A stretch of 16,007 nucleotides of DNA, from assembly GCA_034717975.1 (NCBI GenBank), contig JAYEMF010000038.1:1-16007 (forward strand), read 5' to 3'. Under the pieces are notes generated by a model. It was not told the DNA's origin, did not search any database, and saw only the letters and a list, made by a program, of their open reading frames with translations. Every line of letters begins with the position of its first letter. Positions within the stretch are counted from its first letter, which is position 1. The position numbers were made by a program, and so were the translations under genes. This DNA is from Campylobacterota bacterium. GTDB taxonomy: Bacteria; Campylobacterota; Campylobacteria; Campylobacterales; Sulfurimonadaceae. Shown here piece after piece: positions 6,121 to 16,007 of the stretch.

Positions 6121-6127
6121 TATCTAA
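6044..6127 (+). CDS. Candidate 27-aa small ORF (MRKSAIYNSLPPFLFLFSLSSSPAGGI) whose stop overlaps the hobA start
   Basis: ATG 6044 after a purine-rich stretch; TAA 6125-6127 shares its A with the hobA ATG (TAATG). No homology evidence. Confidence 0.3.
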   Translation: MRKSAIYNSLPPFLFLFSLSSSPAGGI

Positions 6128-6675
6128 TGCAGCAGTTTACAAAATGGACACTTGAAACCATGCGCTCCGAGGGGGCGATGTTAAGCTGGCTTGAAGAGTC
6201 ACGGTTCGAGTGGACCACAACGGTAGCGCAGGCTGTTCGCCAGATCATCGAAGGCAAAACGCTTGTCCTCATCACCGACAGTGAACGTAAATGGTTCGCC
6301 CGTTATATCACCACCTCCTTTAACCGTCCCTCGATGGAGCGTCCGATGATCCCGATGATCAGGCTGGAGCAGATGTACCCGGCCTATGATGAGATCACCG
6401 GCGGCAAGATGATCGATATGCTTGACGATATGCTTGATCTTGCCTTTAGCGAGGGGTACTTCTTCTGGTATATCGGAAAAGGGGATGACCGCCGTTCGGA
6501 TATTGCCAAACGCAGTGACGAGAGTCTTCTCTGGTTGATGGATGAAGATTTTCAAAATGCGCTGACGCTCCGCTCGTATGATCCTATTGTCGATATTAAA
6601 CTGCTGCAGCTCTACAGGCTCTTTGATATTACCCTCAACAGTGCCCTGTTCGGGGAGATCGATGTCGACGCCTGA
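6127..6675 (+). CDS. hobA: HobA family DNA replication regulator (DnaA-binding, DiaA analogue)
   Basis: MQQFTKWTLETMR, SWLEESRFEW, ITDSERKWF, FFWYIGK, DIKLLQLYRLF, LFGEI; GGAGG SD; conserved lysC-hobA-holB order in Campylobacterota. Confidence 0.9.
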   Translation: MQQFTKWTLETMRSEGAMLSWLEESRFEWTTTVAQAVRQIIEGKTLVLITDSERKWFARYITTSFNRPSMERPMIPMIRLEQMYPAYDEITGGKMIDMLDDMLDLAFSEGYFFWYIGKGDDRRSDIAKRSDESLLWLMDEDFQNALTLRSYDPIVDIKLLQLYRLFDITLNSALFGEIDVDA

Positions 6676-7291
6676 GCGCAGTCATATCCTCATCACCGAT
6701 GAGATAGAAGAGGCCGCCGAAAAGATTAAAGAGCGGCTTCATCCCGAACGCATCGTCAACTTTATCCCTGAAAGCCTTGATTTTAAAATTGAAGACAGCC
6801 GTACGGTTATCAAAGAGGCCTACATCAGTGAAGAGCGGGTTAAATACCTGATCTTAGGGGGAAAAAGTTTTACGCCCGAGGCACAAAATGCACTGCTTAA
6901 AGTGCTCGAGGAGCCTCCGAGAAATATCGAGTTTATTCTAATCGCCCCATCCAAATCTGTTATTTTGCCGACTATCCGTTCACGCCTGCCGATGCAGAAA
7001 GAGAAGTCGGTTCATGAGGTCAAGAGCATCGATTTACGCCTTTCTGCCCTTGACCTTGGTTCCCTTTTCTCATTTGTCAAAGCGCATGAACGGCTGAAAA
7101 AACATGAGGCTAAAGAGCTGATCGAAGCGATCTTTCATCAGGCTACGGTCAATGAACAGTTGATCCTGACCCGGTCACAGCTTGATGCTTTCGACAAAAG
7201 TTACCGTCTGATCGAACTGAACGGGCGAATGCAGAGCATCTTATCTATGCTGCTGATGAGTTTTTTACCGGAGACCCGCCGTGTTGGTTGA
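6662..7291 (+). CDS. holB: DNA polymerase III subunit delta' (short Campylobacterota type)
   Basis: FKIED...VIKEAYISE, AQNALLKVLEEPP, LPTIRSRL. Start reassigned to ATG 6662 with GGGGAG SD. Confidence 0.88.
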   Translation: MSTPERSHILITDEIEEAAEKIKERLHPERIVNFIPESLDFKIEDSRTVIKEAYISEERVKYLILGGKSFTPEAQNALLKVLEEPPRNIEFILIAPSKSVILPTIRSRLPMQKEKSVHEVKSIDLRLSALDLGSLFSFVKAHERLKKHEAKELIEAIFHQATVNEQLILTRSQLDAFDKSYRLIELNGRMQSILSMLLMSFLPETRRVG

Positions 7292-11392: not shown

Positions 11393-11430
11393 GAAGCAAT
11401 TGAAGTTCTATCCATAAGGAGGTGGATTTC

Positions 11431-12585
11431 ATGATATCTATCAAAAGTTTTTTAATACTTTTCATCACCATTCTTACATTTACAGGTTGCGGAAGCGGGG
11501 AGAGTGAGAGTTCTGCTGACTCCTCTGATTTTGCCACTCAGTCAGATACTGCAGATCAGTTATTAGCGCTAATACCACTGTGTGAAAATGGTCCAGCCAG
11601 CATAAACGGTCAAGTTACAGACAGCAAGACAAGCGAAGGCATAGCTAATGTTGTAGTCAGTTACGGCTCTTGCACTGCTTCAACGGATTCAGAAGGATAC
11701 TATACCCTCTCCAATGTCGTCACAAGTGAGAGGGCTGTTCTTAACTTCTCACATCAAGGCTATTATCGCAATAGCTCTATTATTCAAATAGATCACTACT
11801 TGGAGGATACAACCACATTATCGCCAAATTATCTGGAGTATGCCTTTGATGCATTTGACGCTCAGTCAATCTACAACACGCAAGAGAGCACAATTATTGA
11901 TGCTACAAACGCTGCTACAATAACGCTCTCTGCCGCAGAGTACAGGACCGCTGGAGGTGACAACTATATAGGTGATGTCATTGCCGAAGCAGCCTATCTG
12001 AATGTGACTACCGACATAGACAGGGAAGCTTTTCCAGGCGCATACGAAGGGATAACCTCTGCAGATTCAATTGTTCCTTTTGTCTCCTACGGTGCCATAG
12101 CGCTGGAGCTGAAAGACAATAACGGCAATACATTGGATTTTTCAGGCAATGCCATCTTGACATTTCCATCACTTGGCCTGAGTGAACACAATATCATTCC
12201 TCTTTGGTTCTATGACTACAATCAAGGGGTATGGATAGAAGAGGGTTTTGCTGAGCTGCAACAAGATGGCACATACAAGGGCGAGGTGTCTCATATAGGA
12301 ACCTGGAGCTTGAACGTTCCCGTTGAGAATGCTCCGGGCACCTATCTGGCCCGCATTGTTTACGGAGACGGAACGCCTGTGAAAGATGCGAGGGTCCATA
12401 CTATCGGAACCAATTGGATTAGAACCTGTCTCTCTACCGATGCAGATGGAATGTTTCAGATCGAAGTGATTCCAGAGAGCAGTTTTCAGCTAAAAGCCTA
12501 TAACTATAAAGATAAGTATGAAGCTGTATATGATGGTACGATACCGGCGATCGCGTCCGGTGAGATTGTCGAGGATAGAATGTAA
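11431..12585 (+). CDS. Lipoprotein with carboxypeptidase-regulatory-like beta-sandwich domains
   Basis: ATG 11431 lies 8 nt after AAGGAGG; lipobox FTGC followed by a Ser-rich linker; INGQVTD...GIANVVV...TDSEGYYTL and DGTPVKDARV...TDADGMFQIEV repeats; central IPLWFYD...W.EEG domain. Confidence 0.8.
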   Translation: MISIKSFLILFITILTFTGCGSGESESSADSSDFATQSDTADQLLALIPLCENGPASINGQVTDSKTSEGIANVVVSYGSCTASTDSEGYYTLSNVVTSERAVLNFSHQGYYRNSSIIQIDHYLEDTTTLSPNYLEYAFDAFDAQSIYNTQESTIIDATNAATITLSAAEYRTAGGDNYIGDVIAEAAYLNVTTDIDREAFPGAYEGITSADSIVPFVSYGAIALELKDNNGNTLDFSGNAILTFPSLGLSEHNIIPLWFYDYNQGVWIEEGFAELQQDGTYKGEVSHIGTWSLNVPVENAPGTYLARIVYGDGTPVKDARVHTIGTNWIRTCLSTDADGMFQIEVIPESSFQLKAYNYKDKYEAVYDGTIPAIASGEIVEDRM

Positions 12586-12641: not shown

Positions 12642-14381
12642 TTACCTCTTTTTCTGATCCACCTGTTTCACTTCTATTTTAAATGTTACACGTCGCGATA
12701 AAACGGCATCTTCATCCGGTTTTTTGATGAGTTTTGAAAAAGCGTATCCCTCATTTGTAAGGATATCCGATAGCCACTGTTGGTGTTTTTTCGTCCCTGT
12801 TTGGGTAAATATATCGGAGAGTACACTGTAGGCTCGCTGTGTTGAAAGTTTTGCATTGTTGAGATAACGGTGGGTAAAATCTGCACCTCGCCATTCGCTT
12901 GAAGTATGGCCATTGATGCGAAGTGCATTGATATTCGGCTTATAGGCACTGAGTGTTTTCAGGAGTTTTGGCGCAAACTGATTGAGAAATGTTTTCTGCT
13001 CAGCTGTCAGTTCATAGATGCCTGTTTTGAAAAGCAGAGCAGGGTGGACAAGCGTGATAGTGAGGTCTCTTGTGATGGTGATCTTACCCTCTGCAATCTC
13101 ATTGGAAAAGGTGTCATATAGATTGTCGTAAAGAGAACGCGCACTCTGCCGAAGCGATATAATACTGCCATCATCGCCCAGTTTCACGATCCACATATTG
13201 GTCACTTCACTGTGTGGTGCGACAGTCTCACCGGCAGCGACATAGCTGCCATCACGCAAGATCGTGACACTGCGAAAGAGGTTTCGGTTTGTATTGCCGT
13301 AGTTGTACTGCCAGATCGGCTTTAGCAGGGGGTCGAAACTGATGGCAAAGGCATCGGTATTGATATGGCGTTTATCTGTTGTGTAACCGACCCCGATAAT
13401 CTTGCCGTCACTCTGCTCCTTGATACTGTAGAGGGCACTGCTTTTAGCAGTAGAGATATTATGCTCTGCAAGCAGGTTTTGCTGAAGGTCAAACTTTAGC
13501 AAGCGGATCTGCTCACCTTTCAGTGGGTCTTTGTAGCTGAGCGATGCCAGAAAATGATCATCACGCAGGGTGATAAGGTCATAGACATTGAAAACACCAC
13601 TTTTCGTGTACTGTTTTAGCCAGATTTTATCGCCATTTTCCGTAATACGCATGAGAGTGATACCGCGGTCTTTTCCTATGTCTGTTGTCGCAGCGACAAG
13701 GATAGTACCGTCATACGCTTCGGTAGCGTCGATACCCCGGTCATCATAGATGGTACCGTATTTTTTGCTCCAGAGACGCCGTCCCTCTTTGGAAAAACGG
13801 GTGAGGTAGATGTCATTGAGTCCAAGTCCCTGTTCATACAAGGCATCACTGAAATCACGGGAAGTGATGGAGGAGCCAACCGCCAGAACACCGCCATCGC
13901 GCAAGAGAACAAGCTTATGCATGCGGTCAAAGTTTTTTGTACCGAACTGCTGAGAAAATTTGATCGTACCATGGCTGTCCATTCGTATAACCAGCAGTTG
14001 GCCTTCCTGGGTGTCACCGCCAATATAGTAGCCGTTCTGAGGGGTCTTAATTAATGAAGAAGCACGGTTGAAGGCTTTGAAATTCATGGAACGGTCGAGT
14101 GTGATATTGGCCTGTGAATCCAGACGTACCAGACGTATCTGTTCGCCTCGGGCACTGTTAAGTGATGAAAGATACTCAAAGGCATCGGTGTAGGTCTCGG
14201 GTTCGGTATTGGTCGTTTTGAAATTTTGAGAATACCCGACAGCACTGATCTGGCCATCATGATCCTGGGTGATGTCGTATAAGCTGTCTTCGAATGTTCC
14301 ACCGATAACGATTGAGTAGCTGTTTTCTGTCTGGGAATAAAGTAGGCCGAAAAGGCTTATAAAGAGGATGAAAATTCGCAT
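12642..14381 (-). CDS. Secreted beta-propeller protein with a C-terminal OmpA/MotB-like (ZorB-like) peptidoglycan-binding domain
   Basis: Signal peptide MRIFILFISLFGLLYS; repeated blades (DG.y.a.G...d.w+.++d..G...W.k.yG); C-terminal LLFKTG..EL, RINGHTSSEW, N..LS..RA.SV, SRRVTFKI. Confidence 0.85.
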   Translation of the reverse strand: MRIFILFISLFGLLYSQTENSYSIVIGGTFEDSLYDITQDHDGQISAVGYSQNFKTTNTEPETYTDAFEYLSSLNSARGEQIRLVRLDSQANITLDRSMNFKAFNRASSLIKTPQNGYYIGGDTQEGQLLVIRMDSHGTIKFSQQFGTKNFDRMHKLVLLRDGGVLAVGSSITSRDFSDALYEQGLGLNDIYLTRFSKEGRRLWSKKYGTIYDDRGIDATEAYDGTILVAATTDIGKDRGITLMRITENGDKIWLKQYTKSGVFNVYDLITLRDDHFLASLSYKDPLKGEQIRLLKFDLQQNLLAEHNISTAKSSALYSIKEQSDGKIIGVGYTTDKRHINTDAFAISFDPLLKPIWQYNYGNTNRNLFRSVTILRDGSYVAAGETVAPHSEVTNMWIVKLGDDGSIISLRQSARSLYDNLYDTFSNEIAEGKITITRDLTITLVHPALLFKTGIYELTAEQKTFLNQFAPKLLKTLSAYKPNINALRINGHTSSEWRGADFTHRYLNNAKLSTQRAYSVLSDIFTQTGTKKHQQWLSDILTNEGYAFSKLIKKPDEDAVLSRRVTFKIEVKQVDQKKR

Positions 14382-14409
14382 AGCTCTGCTTTAGTGTTAA
14401 TATGAGTAG

Positions 14410-14418
14410 GTTATAGCA
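14410..14418 (-). promoter_or_regulatory. Possible extended -10 (TGCTATAAC) for the propeller/OmpA gene
   Basis: Near-consensus box in the 41-bp gap after the ankyrin gene stop; lacks the final T. Confidence 0.35.
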
Positions 14419-14422
14419 AAAA

Positions 14423-15823
14423 TTATTCCCGGTTTTCACCCTTGGTAATGGCACCATAATCGAGCAGAAGTTCAATAAGCAGTTTATGCTGATGCTGCAT
14501 GGCAATCTTGAGTGCATTTAGGCCGCGTTCCGACGTTATATTGACGTCCGTTCCATACTCAAGCAGCATATGAACAATACGGTGGTGATTGTAATAGACG
14601 CCAAACATTAACGCACTCCAGCCAAAGTTGTCAAGCTTGTTGCTATCGGCATAGTTATCAAGCAGTTTTTCTACGGCAAAGGTGCGTCCGGTTGAGCAGG
14701 CTAGCATAAGTGCCGTTCTTCCATTACTGTCTGCGTAGTTGACCTCACTTCCCAAATGCAACAGTAACTCCATATGCTCCTGCGTCCGGTGATCTTGCTG
14801 ACGGGTACACAGATGGATCAAGGGTGTCCAGCCAAGTTTGTTGATCCTTATATCTACACTGGCACCTTTGATCAGAAGCGTTGTCTCAATGGTCCTGAAT
14901 TTTTTGGCTTCTTGCGGGTATTTTTTCAGTGCATTATGTGTCAGGGTCAAAGGCGTATAGAGGCCGTCAAATGTATTGATATTGGCACCGTTATCCAACA
15001 AAAGTTCGACATAATCGGCATATCCGTACGTGATTGCAAGGGTGAGTGCAGAACTTCCGGCACTATTTTTATGATCAATAGTCGCATGGCGTTTAAGCAG
15101 GTAGCTGAGCATCTCATATTGATTTTGATATCGTACAACTATGGTCAGCGCTGTATCGCCCTGTTGGTCCACAGCGTCTATATCAAGACCTTTGTTAAGC
15201 AGATAGGCAACCAGTTTAATATTGCCGCTTGGTATGGCCAGATGTAAAAGTGTCTGGCCCTTTTTATTGTATTCAAATAGTTTATCTGACGAAAACTGCT
15301 GTAAGACAATGGCATGAAGGTCTCCTGCCGCTGCTGCATGGAATGGTGAGATATGGTTCTCTTGGAGTGCCTGGGTATGGGTAATGATACGCATGAGAGA
15401 CTTTTCACCAATTTTTTTAGCCAGTTGCAGCGGCGTCATACCATTTTCGTCTTCAAAGAGTGCATCTGCTCCATAGCGCATTAACAGATGGATGGTCTCA
15501 GCTGCTTTCATCTTCAGCGCAGCATGAAGAGGTGTCTGCCGGTGATGGTCGTAGAGTGTTGGATTGGCACCATATATCAATAAGATCTGAACGATAGAAG
15601 AACGTTCATGCATAATAGCATGAATAAGAGGTGGTGTATGACCGGCTTCTGCATTGTCGACATCAAAACCATTCAATACCATTCCGATGACACCCTCTTC
15701 ATTGCCGGTTTGGATCAACTCAAGAAAGGCTTTATAGGGATGCTCGACAATGTGCGCTTCGAGCGGATGGTGCATAGGCGTTTTTAAAATGATGGCACTT
15801 TGCAGACGTTCCATAAAAGACAT
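14423..15823 (-). CDS. Ankyrin repeat protein (about 11-12 repeats), no signal peptide
   Basis: Repeated G.TPL/TALH.A...G....V..LL..GA.+N motifs. True start is likely ATG 15823 (or 15814/15775); the ORF-track N-terminus runs through a non-coding repeat. Confidence 0.9.
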   Translation of the reverse strand: MSFMERLQSAIILKTPMHHPLEAHIVEHPYKAFLELIQTGNEEGVIGMVLNGFDVDNAEAGHTPPLIHAIMHERSSIVQILLIYGANPTLYDHHRQTPLHAALKMKAAETIHLLMRYGADALFEDENGMTPLQLAKKIGEKSLMRIITHTQALQENHISPFHAAAAGDLHAIVLQQFSSDKLFEYNKKGQTLLHLAIPSGNIKLVAYLLNKGLDIDAVDQQGDTALTIVVRYQNQYEMLSYLLKRHATIDHKNSAGSSALTLAITYGYADYVELLLDNGANINTFDGLYTPLTLTHNALKKYPQEAKKFRTIETTLLIKGASVDIRINKLGWTPLIHLCTRQQDHRTQEHMELLLHLGSEVNYADSNGRTALMLACSTGRTFAVEKLLDNYADSNKLDNFGWSALMFGVYYNHHRIVHMLLEYGTDVNITSERGLNALKIAMQHQHKLLIELLLDYGAITKGENRE

Positions 15824-15879: not shown

Positions 15880-16007
15880 GCCAATTTCTTGGCATTTTTA
15901 GCTTCGAAACCGGAGTGTTGTCGAGCTTATGCGAGACCACGGAGGCTTAAGATAAATAGCCAATTTCTTGGCATTTTTAGCTTCGAAACCGGAGTGTTGT
16001 CGAGCTT
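15880..16007. repeat. Direct repeat with 79-bp period; two identical 49-bp segments, the second cut by the window end; each unit is palindromic
   Basis: 15880-15928 equals 15959-16007 (gccaatttcttggcatttttagcttcgaaaccggagtgttgtcgagctt). Confidence 0.85.

Follow-up and report, generated by a model that had tools for sequence, protein, structure and literature searches.

A predicted periplasmic beta-propeller of Sulfurimonadaceae carries a ZorB2-type peptidoglycan-binding module without a motor

How does the wall-binding half of a Zorya-type motor subunit come to sit on a protein that has no motor? The question is raised by a single ATG-initiated open reading frame (ORF) of 579 amino acids (aa) in the first 16,007 nucleotides of contig JAYEMF010000038.1 (assembly GCA_034717975.1), from a Campylobacterota bacterium of the family Sulfurimonadaceae; this whole stretch of DNA is referred to here as the window, and coordinates are collected in Table 1. 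An earlier note, made from the sequence alone, had described the product as a signal peptide and multi-bladed propeller fused to a ZorB-like domain and had proposed a repurposed defence-motor domain, possibly part of an undescribed defence module. The ORF and the motifs quoted there (LYDNLYDTFSNEI, GHTSSEW, HQQW and SRRVTFK) are all present in the translation. The protein is a domain architecture without an earlier description that we could find, built from known kinds of part; no description of the fusion was found in the literature searched, subscription journals and supplements lying outside that search. We consider it likely, with respect to architecture and anchoring, that the product is a Sec-exported, probably dimeric and peptidoglycan-tethered propeller acting as a binding platform in the envelope.

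Analysis of an AlphaFold 2 (AF2) model of the whole protein (mean predicted local distance difference test score (pLDDT) 88.4, predicted template modelling score (pTM) 0.83), built on an alignment of 60 homologues, gave an order of 28 strands (residues 23-401), a helix (412-430) and an alpha/beta domain (434-571). We scored 8000 candidates and found 732 homologues at E <= 0.001. The 120 top-ranking ones, as listed, are mostly of ~570 aa, with source names, where given, of Sulfurimonas, Sulfurimonadaceae or Campylobacterota. Conservation figures given below refer to 60 aligned fusion proteins and motif counts to 136 fusion-length homologues.

The C-terminal module was recognised most strongly by the PADLOC hidden Markov model (HMM) for ZorB2 (PDLC00641; 126.8 bits, E 2.6e-37), with aa 411-573 aligning to profile positions 57-226 of 238, that is to everything past the transmembrane (TM) helix of the profile. 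A genome search with the same model placed the module at 12660-13151. Scores from the other PADLOC ZorB models were 87.3 bits for the cross-reacting ZorB1 model PDLC00609 and 15.5 bits for ZorB3, while the NCBIfam model of type II ZorB (NF041787) reached 86 bits against 28.8 for TssL and at most 24.6 for models of MotB. Searched by sequence against the PDB, the module found chain 8vvi_A first (E 5.7e-14) and MotS next (E 1e-3). Structure 8VVI shows ZorAB of type II from Sulfuricurvum kujiense (PMC11890865), a member of Sulfurimonadaceae. A separate AF2 model of aa 405-579 (pLDDT 94.5, pTM 0.89) again had 8vvi_A as its best fold match, with a query TM-score (TMq) of 0.85, a root mean square deviation of 2.2 A and 28% identity; type I ZorB chains (0.68-0.74), MotS (0.67-0.69) and MotB, TssL, Pal-like and OmpA-like chains (<= 0.62) scored lower. 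The fold is OmpA-like, with 115 PDB matches at E <= 0.001, those listed being OmpA-like, MotB, PomB and Pal-type. The assignment to type II draws on the HMM scores and PDB matches, the trees described below containing no real ZorB1 or ZorB3 sequences.

We utilized an exhaustive, profile-free search of aa 405-579 against 1.84 billion representative sequences, which returned 853 proteins at E <= 0.001. Beyond the fusion's own relatives and fragments these were proteins of ~220-260 aa with N-termini of the form 'W.S.SDLMSGLM..FLFIA', and a regular expression found a 'SDLMSGLM...FLFIA'-type TM helix with its Asp in 76 of the 150 best representatives listed. The architecture classes were assigned by crude regular-expression and length rules, under which P0244, an ankyrin lipoprotein of 653 aa, was miscounted as a fusion. 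The fusion aligns with these B subunits from the alpha1 helix ('LYxxLxxEF') via GHTSSEW, N..LS..R and W-L to SRRVxF[KR]; its alpha1 matches their 'LYxxLxxEFxxDL' helix, the one that in ZorB links TM helix and peptidoglycan-binding domain (PGBD). The GHTSSxW motif falls exactly where the earlier note had placed it. Its G491, S494 and W497 are invariant, the exact GHTSSEW occurs in 113 of 136 homologues as well as in 8vvi_A and the B subunits, and GHTD occurs in none of the 136. The MotB, the Pal and another OmpA domain of the fusion's own genome were undetected by phmmer with the fusion domain even at E <= 10, and its flagellar MotB scored only 33-37 bits on the ZorB2 model. The likeness to type II ZorB, as opposed to generic OmpA, MotB or Pal domains, had been proposed in the earlier note; four independent lines of computation (HMMs, PDB sequence, fold and the exhaustive search) and the trees agree on it, and the protein has a C-terminal ZorB-type PGBD.

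In a quick tree of 135 rows, with the MotB, the Pal and another OmpA domain of the same genome as outgroups, the fusion PGBDs form one clade (Shimodaira-Hasegawa-like approximate likelihood ratio test (SH-aLRT) 97) that falls among ZorB2-like B subunits, themselves an unresolved radiation. A more careful tree comprised 58 rows picked before the topology test discussed below (11 fusions, 34 representatives, 10 context-verified rows and 3 outgroups). Here the fusion clade had ultrafast bootstrap and SH-aLRT values of 94/98 and appeared in 95% of bootstrap trees. It sits in a subclade of 31 rows (92/90) together with context-verified B subunits from the family and class and two ankyrin-PGBD fusions; genome G101, which has a complete type II Zorya system, has its B subunit elsewhere in the tree. 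The three domains from the same genome are very long outgroups in these trees; the phylogeny and fold comparison suggested earlier group the fusion with ZorB2-like subunits and not with the ordinary families. The fusion is monophyletic and most likely has a single origin. Exaptation from a stator is favoured, if not proven, by the tree and by the restriction of the fusion to one family against the wide range of the B subunits. ZorAB was excluded from a preprint on stator evolution (10.1101/2024.07.22.604496).

The proposed repurposing of a defence-motor domain has moderate support: the fusion clade nests among stator B subunits, with a sister position not rejected, and the source, a ZorB2-type stator, need not have served in defence. 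Genome G101 encodes a complete type II Zorya with ZorA2 (378 aa, 481.7 bits), ZorB2 (302.9 bits) and ZorE (118.7 bits). Other ZorB2-like subunits of the family score 225-280 bits and have varying partners, one of them adjoining a ZorA-like gene of 314 aa. Since several of these subunits lie outside Zorya, the donor would be a ZorB2-type stator and not necessarily a defence protein. The closest non-fusion relatives within the family share 38-39% identity over aa 409-576 and have open frames of 221 aa (ORFs of 211-214 aa).

A number of these subunits occur in unusual pairs. At L029:5337-6561 (G013) and L028:5534-6758 (G016), a 193-197-aa protein combining HHH_3 (ComEA-like) with a tail-less MotA/ZorA2-like channel is paired with a ZorB2-like B subunit of 211-214 aa (256-258 bits). 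Both pairs lie inside polysaccharide clusters with GDP-mannose dehydratase, epimerases, glycosyltransferases and UDP-glucose dehydrogenase, and each resembles a minimal 5:2 stator. At L034:5793-7054 (G059) and L035:5005-6265 (G103) the neighbour of the ZorB2-like subunit (225-230 bits) is a tail-less ZorA2-like protein (210-211 aa, 128-136 bits), with no ZorE match among the ORFs scanned there. In family f2 of the same order (L042:3732-7144, L043:5960-8680, L044:4543-7337) ZorA2-like proteins of 662-873 aa accompany ZorB2-like subunits (262-267 bits), again with no ZorE match among the adjacent ORFs scanned; the f2 domain matches cover almost all species sampled in two genera (g24 6/6, g25 13/14), a breadth unusual in a defence system. 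The module is also found elsewhere. P0149, P0233, P0260 and P0244 are ankyrin-repeat proteins with a signal peptide or lipoprotein signal fused to a ZorB2-like module, a second motor-less architecture; P0228 combines a cytoplasmic domain, a TM helix, an acidic coiled coil and a PGBD; and TM families lacking the Asp, with '...FGQ...' and '...HRRG..GLTMAEV...' N-termini, carry the module as well.

At its other end the protein begins with M-R followed by a hydrophobic core of 11-12 residues (Kyte-Doolittle value 2.92 for the 11-residue h-region), which the AF2 model renders as a helix at 2-14 followed by low pLDDT at 14-18. A crude signal-peptide test was passed by 116 of the 136 homologues and a lipobox was present in none, so that the N-terminus is probably a Sec signal peptide of the non-lipoprotein kind. 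This h-region is the sole hydrophobic stretch of the protein: no 19-residue Kyte-Doolittle window reaches the 1.6 taken to indicate a TM helix, and the maximum beyond the first 30 residues is 1.09. The stator TM motif with its Asp was found by regular expression in 0 of 136 fusion homologues vs the 76 of 150 domain relatives mentioned above, and the protein lacks a TM helix bearing the ion-binding Asp (D21, D24 or D26 in the solved ZorBs). Together with an HMM match that starts after the TM helix, these observations corroborate the proposal that a signal peptide and propeller stand in place of the stator helix.

We also looked for the remainder of a motor. In agreement with the earlier note, there is no MotA/ZorA-like gene among the window's ORFs, and a PADLOC scan of the 17 window ORFs gave no Zor match; ZorE was likewise not found among them, and the fusion gene has neither an adjacent ZorA nor Zorya effectors (ZorE, ZorC/D or ZorF/G) in its operon. 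The search of the genome for zorA proposed earlier was also negative: in an assembly that is 99.9% complete, four MotA_ExbB matches lie in frames of 150-254 aa, none of which matches a ZorA model at E <= 1e-5 or is ZorA-sized. The ZorB2 model detected only the fusion gene and the flagellar MotB in this genome, whose Pal adjoins TolQ-like genes. Lacking a TM helix, a proton-carrying Asp and a MotA/ZorA partner, the protein is no motor and does not conduct ions.

The fusion has a narrow and patchy range. Of the 120 genomes sampled from the window's family, 55 gave an orthologue-level match (best E <= 1e-60, read from the table). Forty-five of the matches run uninterrupted over the full length, and the rest are split by contig ends or insertions or consist of the propeller only. 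In a class sample of 300 genomes the full-length form occurred only in the same family (15 of 23 genomes) and in none of the others among the 14 families, where the only proteins matching aa ~414-573 have ~240-270 aa; in family f2 these occur in 26 of 90 genomes, and a paralogue made of the propeller only was seen once, in family f10. At 13 of the 19 loci taken from other genomes the fusion gene is flanked by HAD, hyp108, cytochrome c or MTHFR genes. Some orthologues are 405-410 aa long and break off exactly at the junction with no remnant of the PGBD, one of them at the same hyp108-HAD-MTHFR locus, and the module is therefore separable. In genus g7 some orthologues (G104:C49:7194-9014, G062:C55:2482-4290; open frames of 652 and 748 aa) have ~40-50 aa inserted between propeller and PGBD.

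The N-terminal ~380 aa are modelled at high pLDDT as seven four-stranded blades, in keeping with the multi-bladed propeller of ~390 aa anticipated earlier. Foldseek returned the CylK propeller first (7FH8; E 1e-22, 17% identity), followed by lectins with seven blades and by generic propellers. The propeller has the multi-bladed four-stranded fold of the SBBP/DUF5122/delta-60 type, and the family HMMs all score below their cut-offs (DUF5122 16.8 of 27 bits, delta_60_rpt 45.4 of 76.5, LipL53 SBBP 27.6 of 400); Atlas neighbours were secreted or lipoprotein SBBP/DUF5122 propellers, generic only. The most conserved stretch, aa 160-225, includes invariant G185, G187 and D190 and near-invariant R175, R195, K206, K207, D213, D214, E221 and D224.

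Retention of the peptidoglycan site points to what the C-terminal module may do. N509, L512 and R516 are invariant both in the fusions and in a 61-row alignment with B subunits, N..L[ST]..R is kept in 134 of the 136 homologues, and the OmpA-like fold and N-x2-L-x3-R contact residues of the PF00691 superfamily are both present. N152, L155 and R159 of E. coli ZorB (EcZorB) are spaced in the same way. When these are mutated along with Y151, defence is lost, and mutants of the peptidoglycan-binding site bind peptidoglycan less (PMC11946911). A wall tether is plausible given that the contact residues are retained, and the module may plausibly bind peptidoglycan through N509, L512 and R516; by analogy with ZorB and MotB it probably dimerises. 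The sequence of events would be as follows. The Sec signal peptide would export the soluble protein to the periplasm, where the ZorB2-like module, alpha1 together with the compact OmpA-like domain, would bind peptidoglycan at these three residues; dimerisation would hold one or two seven-bladed propellers at the cell wall, and a propeller held there could serve as a platform for an envelope ligand, whether glycan or protein. The anchor would have been taken once, within Campylobacterota, from a ZorB2-like subunit of a 5:2 stator, with a junction at aa ~405-410, in an ancestor of several Sulfurimonadaceae genera.

A number of observations weigh against this account. The Pfam OmpA model scored a borderline 26.2 bits in hmmscan, under its cut-off of 27.2, and 29.7 in the genome search. 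In the 58-row tree an approximately unbiased test did not reject a topology that unites all 44 non-fusion rows in a single clade (log-likelihood difference 6.9, p 0.279), and the trees are without the ZorB1 and ZorB3 sequences mentioned above. Presence in 55 of 120 genomes and the propeller-only forms indicate that protein and anchor are dispensable in many relatives. Within the binding site the residue matching EcZorB Y151 is N508, and the Asp of the classical OmpA GHTD is a Ser here, as across the ZorB2-like family; the peptidoglycan pull-downs that we refer to used type I EcZorB and not type II. Export, peptidoglycan binding, dimerisation, the propeller's role in binding and the direction in which the domain moved are all things that we infer from sequence and models; what the analysis shows is the architecture, the family of the domain, the lack of ZorA, the conservation and the synteny. 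The propeller, lastly, offers no functional hint beyond its fold, its top match being an enzyme and the next being lectins.

Table 1 Coordinates of the fusion gene, its parts and the upstream neighbour in the window
Feature	Position	Strand	Basis or remark
Whole gene, 579 aa	12642..14381	-	signal peptide (predicted), propeller and ZorB2-like peptidoglycan-binding module
Sec-type signal peptide (predicted), aa 1-~19, no lipobox Cys	14325..14381	-	hydrophobicity and AF2 model
Seven-bladed beta-propeller, aa ~20-405, SBBP/DUF5122/delta-60-repeat type	13167..14324	-	AF2 model, Foldseek, weak HMMs
ZorB2-type periplasmic module, aa 411-573 (alpha1 helix and compact OmpA-like peptidoglycan-binding domain)	12663..13151	-	HMM, PDB sequence, fold
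Alpha1 helix 'LYDNLYDTFSNEI...', aa 412-430	13092..13148	-	helices H412-424 and H426-430 in model
GHTSSEW motif, aa 491-497	12891..12911	-	ZorB2-family variant of OmpA 'GHTD'
N509-x2-L512-S-x2-R516, predicted peptidoglycan-contact residues	12834..12857	-	conservation and EcZorB spacing
Spacer, ankyrin gene to fusion gene, 41 nt	14382..14422	-	sequence read
Upstream ankyrin-repeat gene, likely 466 aa, starts MSFMERLQ	14423..15823	-	Pfam Ank_2 227.9 bits

The gene directly upstream of the fusion encodes an ankyrin-repeat protein. Its frame is open from a GTG at 15940; orthologues begin MPFMERLQSAMILKT, the equivalent of 15823, and the window's copy therefore most likely starts there. A promoter-like site lies at 15859-15822, no terminator-like site was found in the spacer between the two genes, and they may be co-transcribed. 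In 12 of 19 loci the ankyrin gene immediately precedes the fusion on the same strand. It occurs without the fusion in genera g5, g8, g10, g11 and g14, and the fusion occurs without it in g2, g4, g13, g19 and g23; its orthologues show no signal peptide. It matches the PADLOC candidate PDC-M72A (181.6 bits) and the model 'Ankyrin', probably via the repeats alone. We considered the ankyrin protein as an obligate partner and rejected this despite the frequent adjacency, the genus distributions being independent and the protein having no signal peptide; the gene is a syntenic neighbour.

The other, housekeeping neighbours in the window are queA, tatBC, radical-SAM, Nudix, aspartokinase, hobA, holB, folP, MTHFR, HAD phosphatase and cytochrome c genes. 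Convergent to the fusion gene, 11422-12585(+) would encode a lipoprotein, with the lipobox LTFTGC and a CarboxypepD_reg domain. In the loci of other genera that we examined the fusion has cytochrome c or hyp108 directly beside it, so that this gene seems to be an insertion specific to the lineage. The hobA ORF at 6127-6675(+) and the holB-like ORF at 6578-7291(+) overlap by ~98 nt as listed, and the holB start is probably downstream. Elsewhere in the same genome, G000:C98:6784-7068 (L037) marks a large protein, in an open frame of 624 aa, whose C-terminal end is a canonical OmpA domain (77.7 bits); it served as an outgroup of the trees. No RNA data set was among the read sets listed; four DNA runs from one study contain 80-97% of the sampled words, and one of these runs may be where the sequence came from.

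Three other explanations of the fusion deserve consideration. A place in an anti-phage system, either as a motor-less Zorya derivative or as an envelope sensor working with neighbours such as the ankyrin protein, was suggested by the ZorB2-like domain and by an upstream gene that matches PDC-M72A and is so often adjacent. Genome and window argue otherwise: there is no ZorA in either and no ZorE among the window's ORFs, no specific defence model matched any neighbour (the window's PADLOC matches being only to generic folds, Nudix and ankyrin), and the ankyrin protein, whose matches are explained by its repeats and whose distribution is independent of that of the fusion, would lie in another compartment for want of a signal peptide. 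The gene occupies a fixed housekeeping locus (HAD-hyp108-cytochrome c-MTHFR) and its inheritance is restricted to one family and looks vertical, and an undescribed defence module is consequently unsupported. It turns out to be a conserved core gene with no link to a defence island, which tells against the defence part of the earlier proposal and leaves its exaptation part standing. We regard a defence role as very improbable, and a wall-tethered binding protein as most likely.

The propeller could instead be an enzyme, for example a lyase, a lactonase or alkyl-transferase-like, whose activity the ZorB2-like domain localises to the wall. Its best structural match, CylK, is catalytic and aa 160-225 form a strongly conserved patch; identity to CylK is however just 17%, lectins and scaffolds come next, SBBP-type repeat motifs account for part of the conservation, and no enzyme family matched the propeller in Pfam or NCBIfam. 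The CylK active site presumably requires a second, N-terminal domain, and that domain is absent here. On balance an enzyme seems unlikely. Less probable again is a periplasmic scaffold of the flagellar motor, an analogue of MotY built from a stator-type PGBD. The exported MotY of Vibrio, whose C-terminal domain is OmpA/MotB-like, stabilises the stators. Read from the tables, FlhA was present in all 55 family genomes with an orthologue vs 35 of the 65 without; the three largely non-flagellate genera have no orthologue (0/15 in g8, 0/10 in g10 and 0/2 in g14), the domain stems from the stator superfamily, and one source labels homologues 'flagellar motor protein MotB', automatically. Yet genera that are flagellate can lack the fusion (g17, FlhA in 14/15 and fusion in 0/15; g5, 5/6 vs 0/6) or carry it in part (g21, 12/12 vs 5/12), and the gene is not part of a flagellar cluster. 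With three quarters of the sampled genomes flagellate, and related genomes not independent, the association is weak. We retain the wall-tethered binding platform as the preferred reading.

A broader idea, which we regard as doubtful, is that the ZorB2-like periplasmic half is a portable and self-sufficient wall-engagement cassette that left 5:2 motors more than once, and that its motor-less Sulfurimonadaceae descendant may keep the conditional and perturbation-dependent engagement of peptidoglycan proposed for ZorB, as an envelope-state sensor or as a MotY-like scaffold of the stator ring in the polar flagellar motor. The carriers of such a cassette would be the propeller, the ankyrin-repeat lipoproteins and the Asp-less membrane proteins.

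The fusion shows that the wall-binding half of such a subunit does not need a motor in order to function, or at any rate to be kept by selection: its peptidoglycan-contact residues are intact across the carrier genera of one family, on a wholly different protein. For the evolution of 5:2 motors it means a periplasmic module separable at a defined junction. It also calls for caution in annotation, as ZorB2 models flag non-defence genes and the family has several full ZorB2-like subunits outside Zorya. The aa 405-579 fragment has no Cys and no TM helix, and the fusion offers a natural soluble, TM-free ZorB2-type PGBD for the study of peptidoglycan recognition.

Known systems resemble the fusion in part. 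With secreted SBBP/DUF5122 propellers and CylK it shares seven-bladed four-stranded repeats and weak HMM matches, the type being common in secreted proteins and lipoproteins; none of those listed, however, has a ZorB-type domain, and the HMM scores here are below cut-off. In TolB-Pal a periplasmic beta-propeller is likewise functionally joined to an OmpA-like peptidoglycan binder, an analogy only: there two proteins bind each other, whereas the fusion is one chain, and neither the HMM scans gave a TolB family match for the propeller nor the Foldseek matches listed a TolB chain. Other OmpA_C-like anchors (Pal, MotY, YiaD, YfiB, Tp0624, TssL) are also exported or lipid-anchored proteins whose C-terminal OmpA-like domain keeps them at the sacculus, and the fusion may be comparable to MotY as a wall anchor. 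Fold similarity to these anchors is TMq 0.5-0.62, but in sequence the fusion belongs to the ZorB2 lineage and its HMM scores to their families are at most 29 bits. Non-Zorya 5:2 B subunits share its 31-row subclade; unlike the fusion they keep the TM helix with its Asp and adjoin a ZorA-like gene of variable form. Closest to the type II ZorB of S. kujiense, the fusion resembles it over the whole periplasmic part, from alpha1 and the OmpA-like fold through GHTSSxW, N..LS..R and W-L to SRRVxF[KR], but lacks its N-terminal cytoplasmic stub, TM helix, Asp, ZorA and ZorE. In their place it has a putative signal peptide and a propeller of 385 aa, and it is encoded by a core chromosomal gene instead of one from a defence island.

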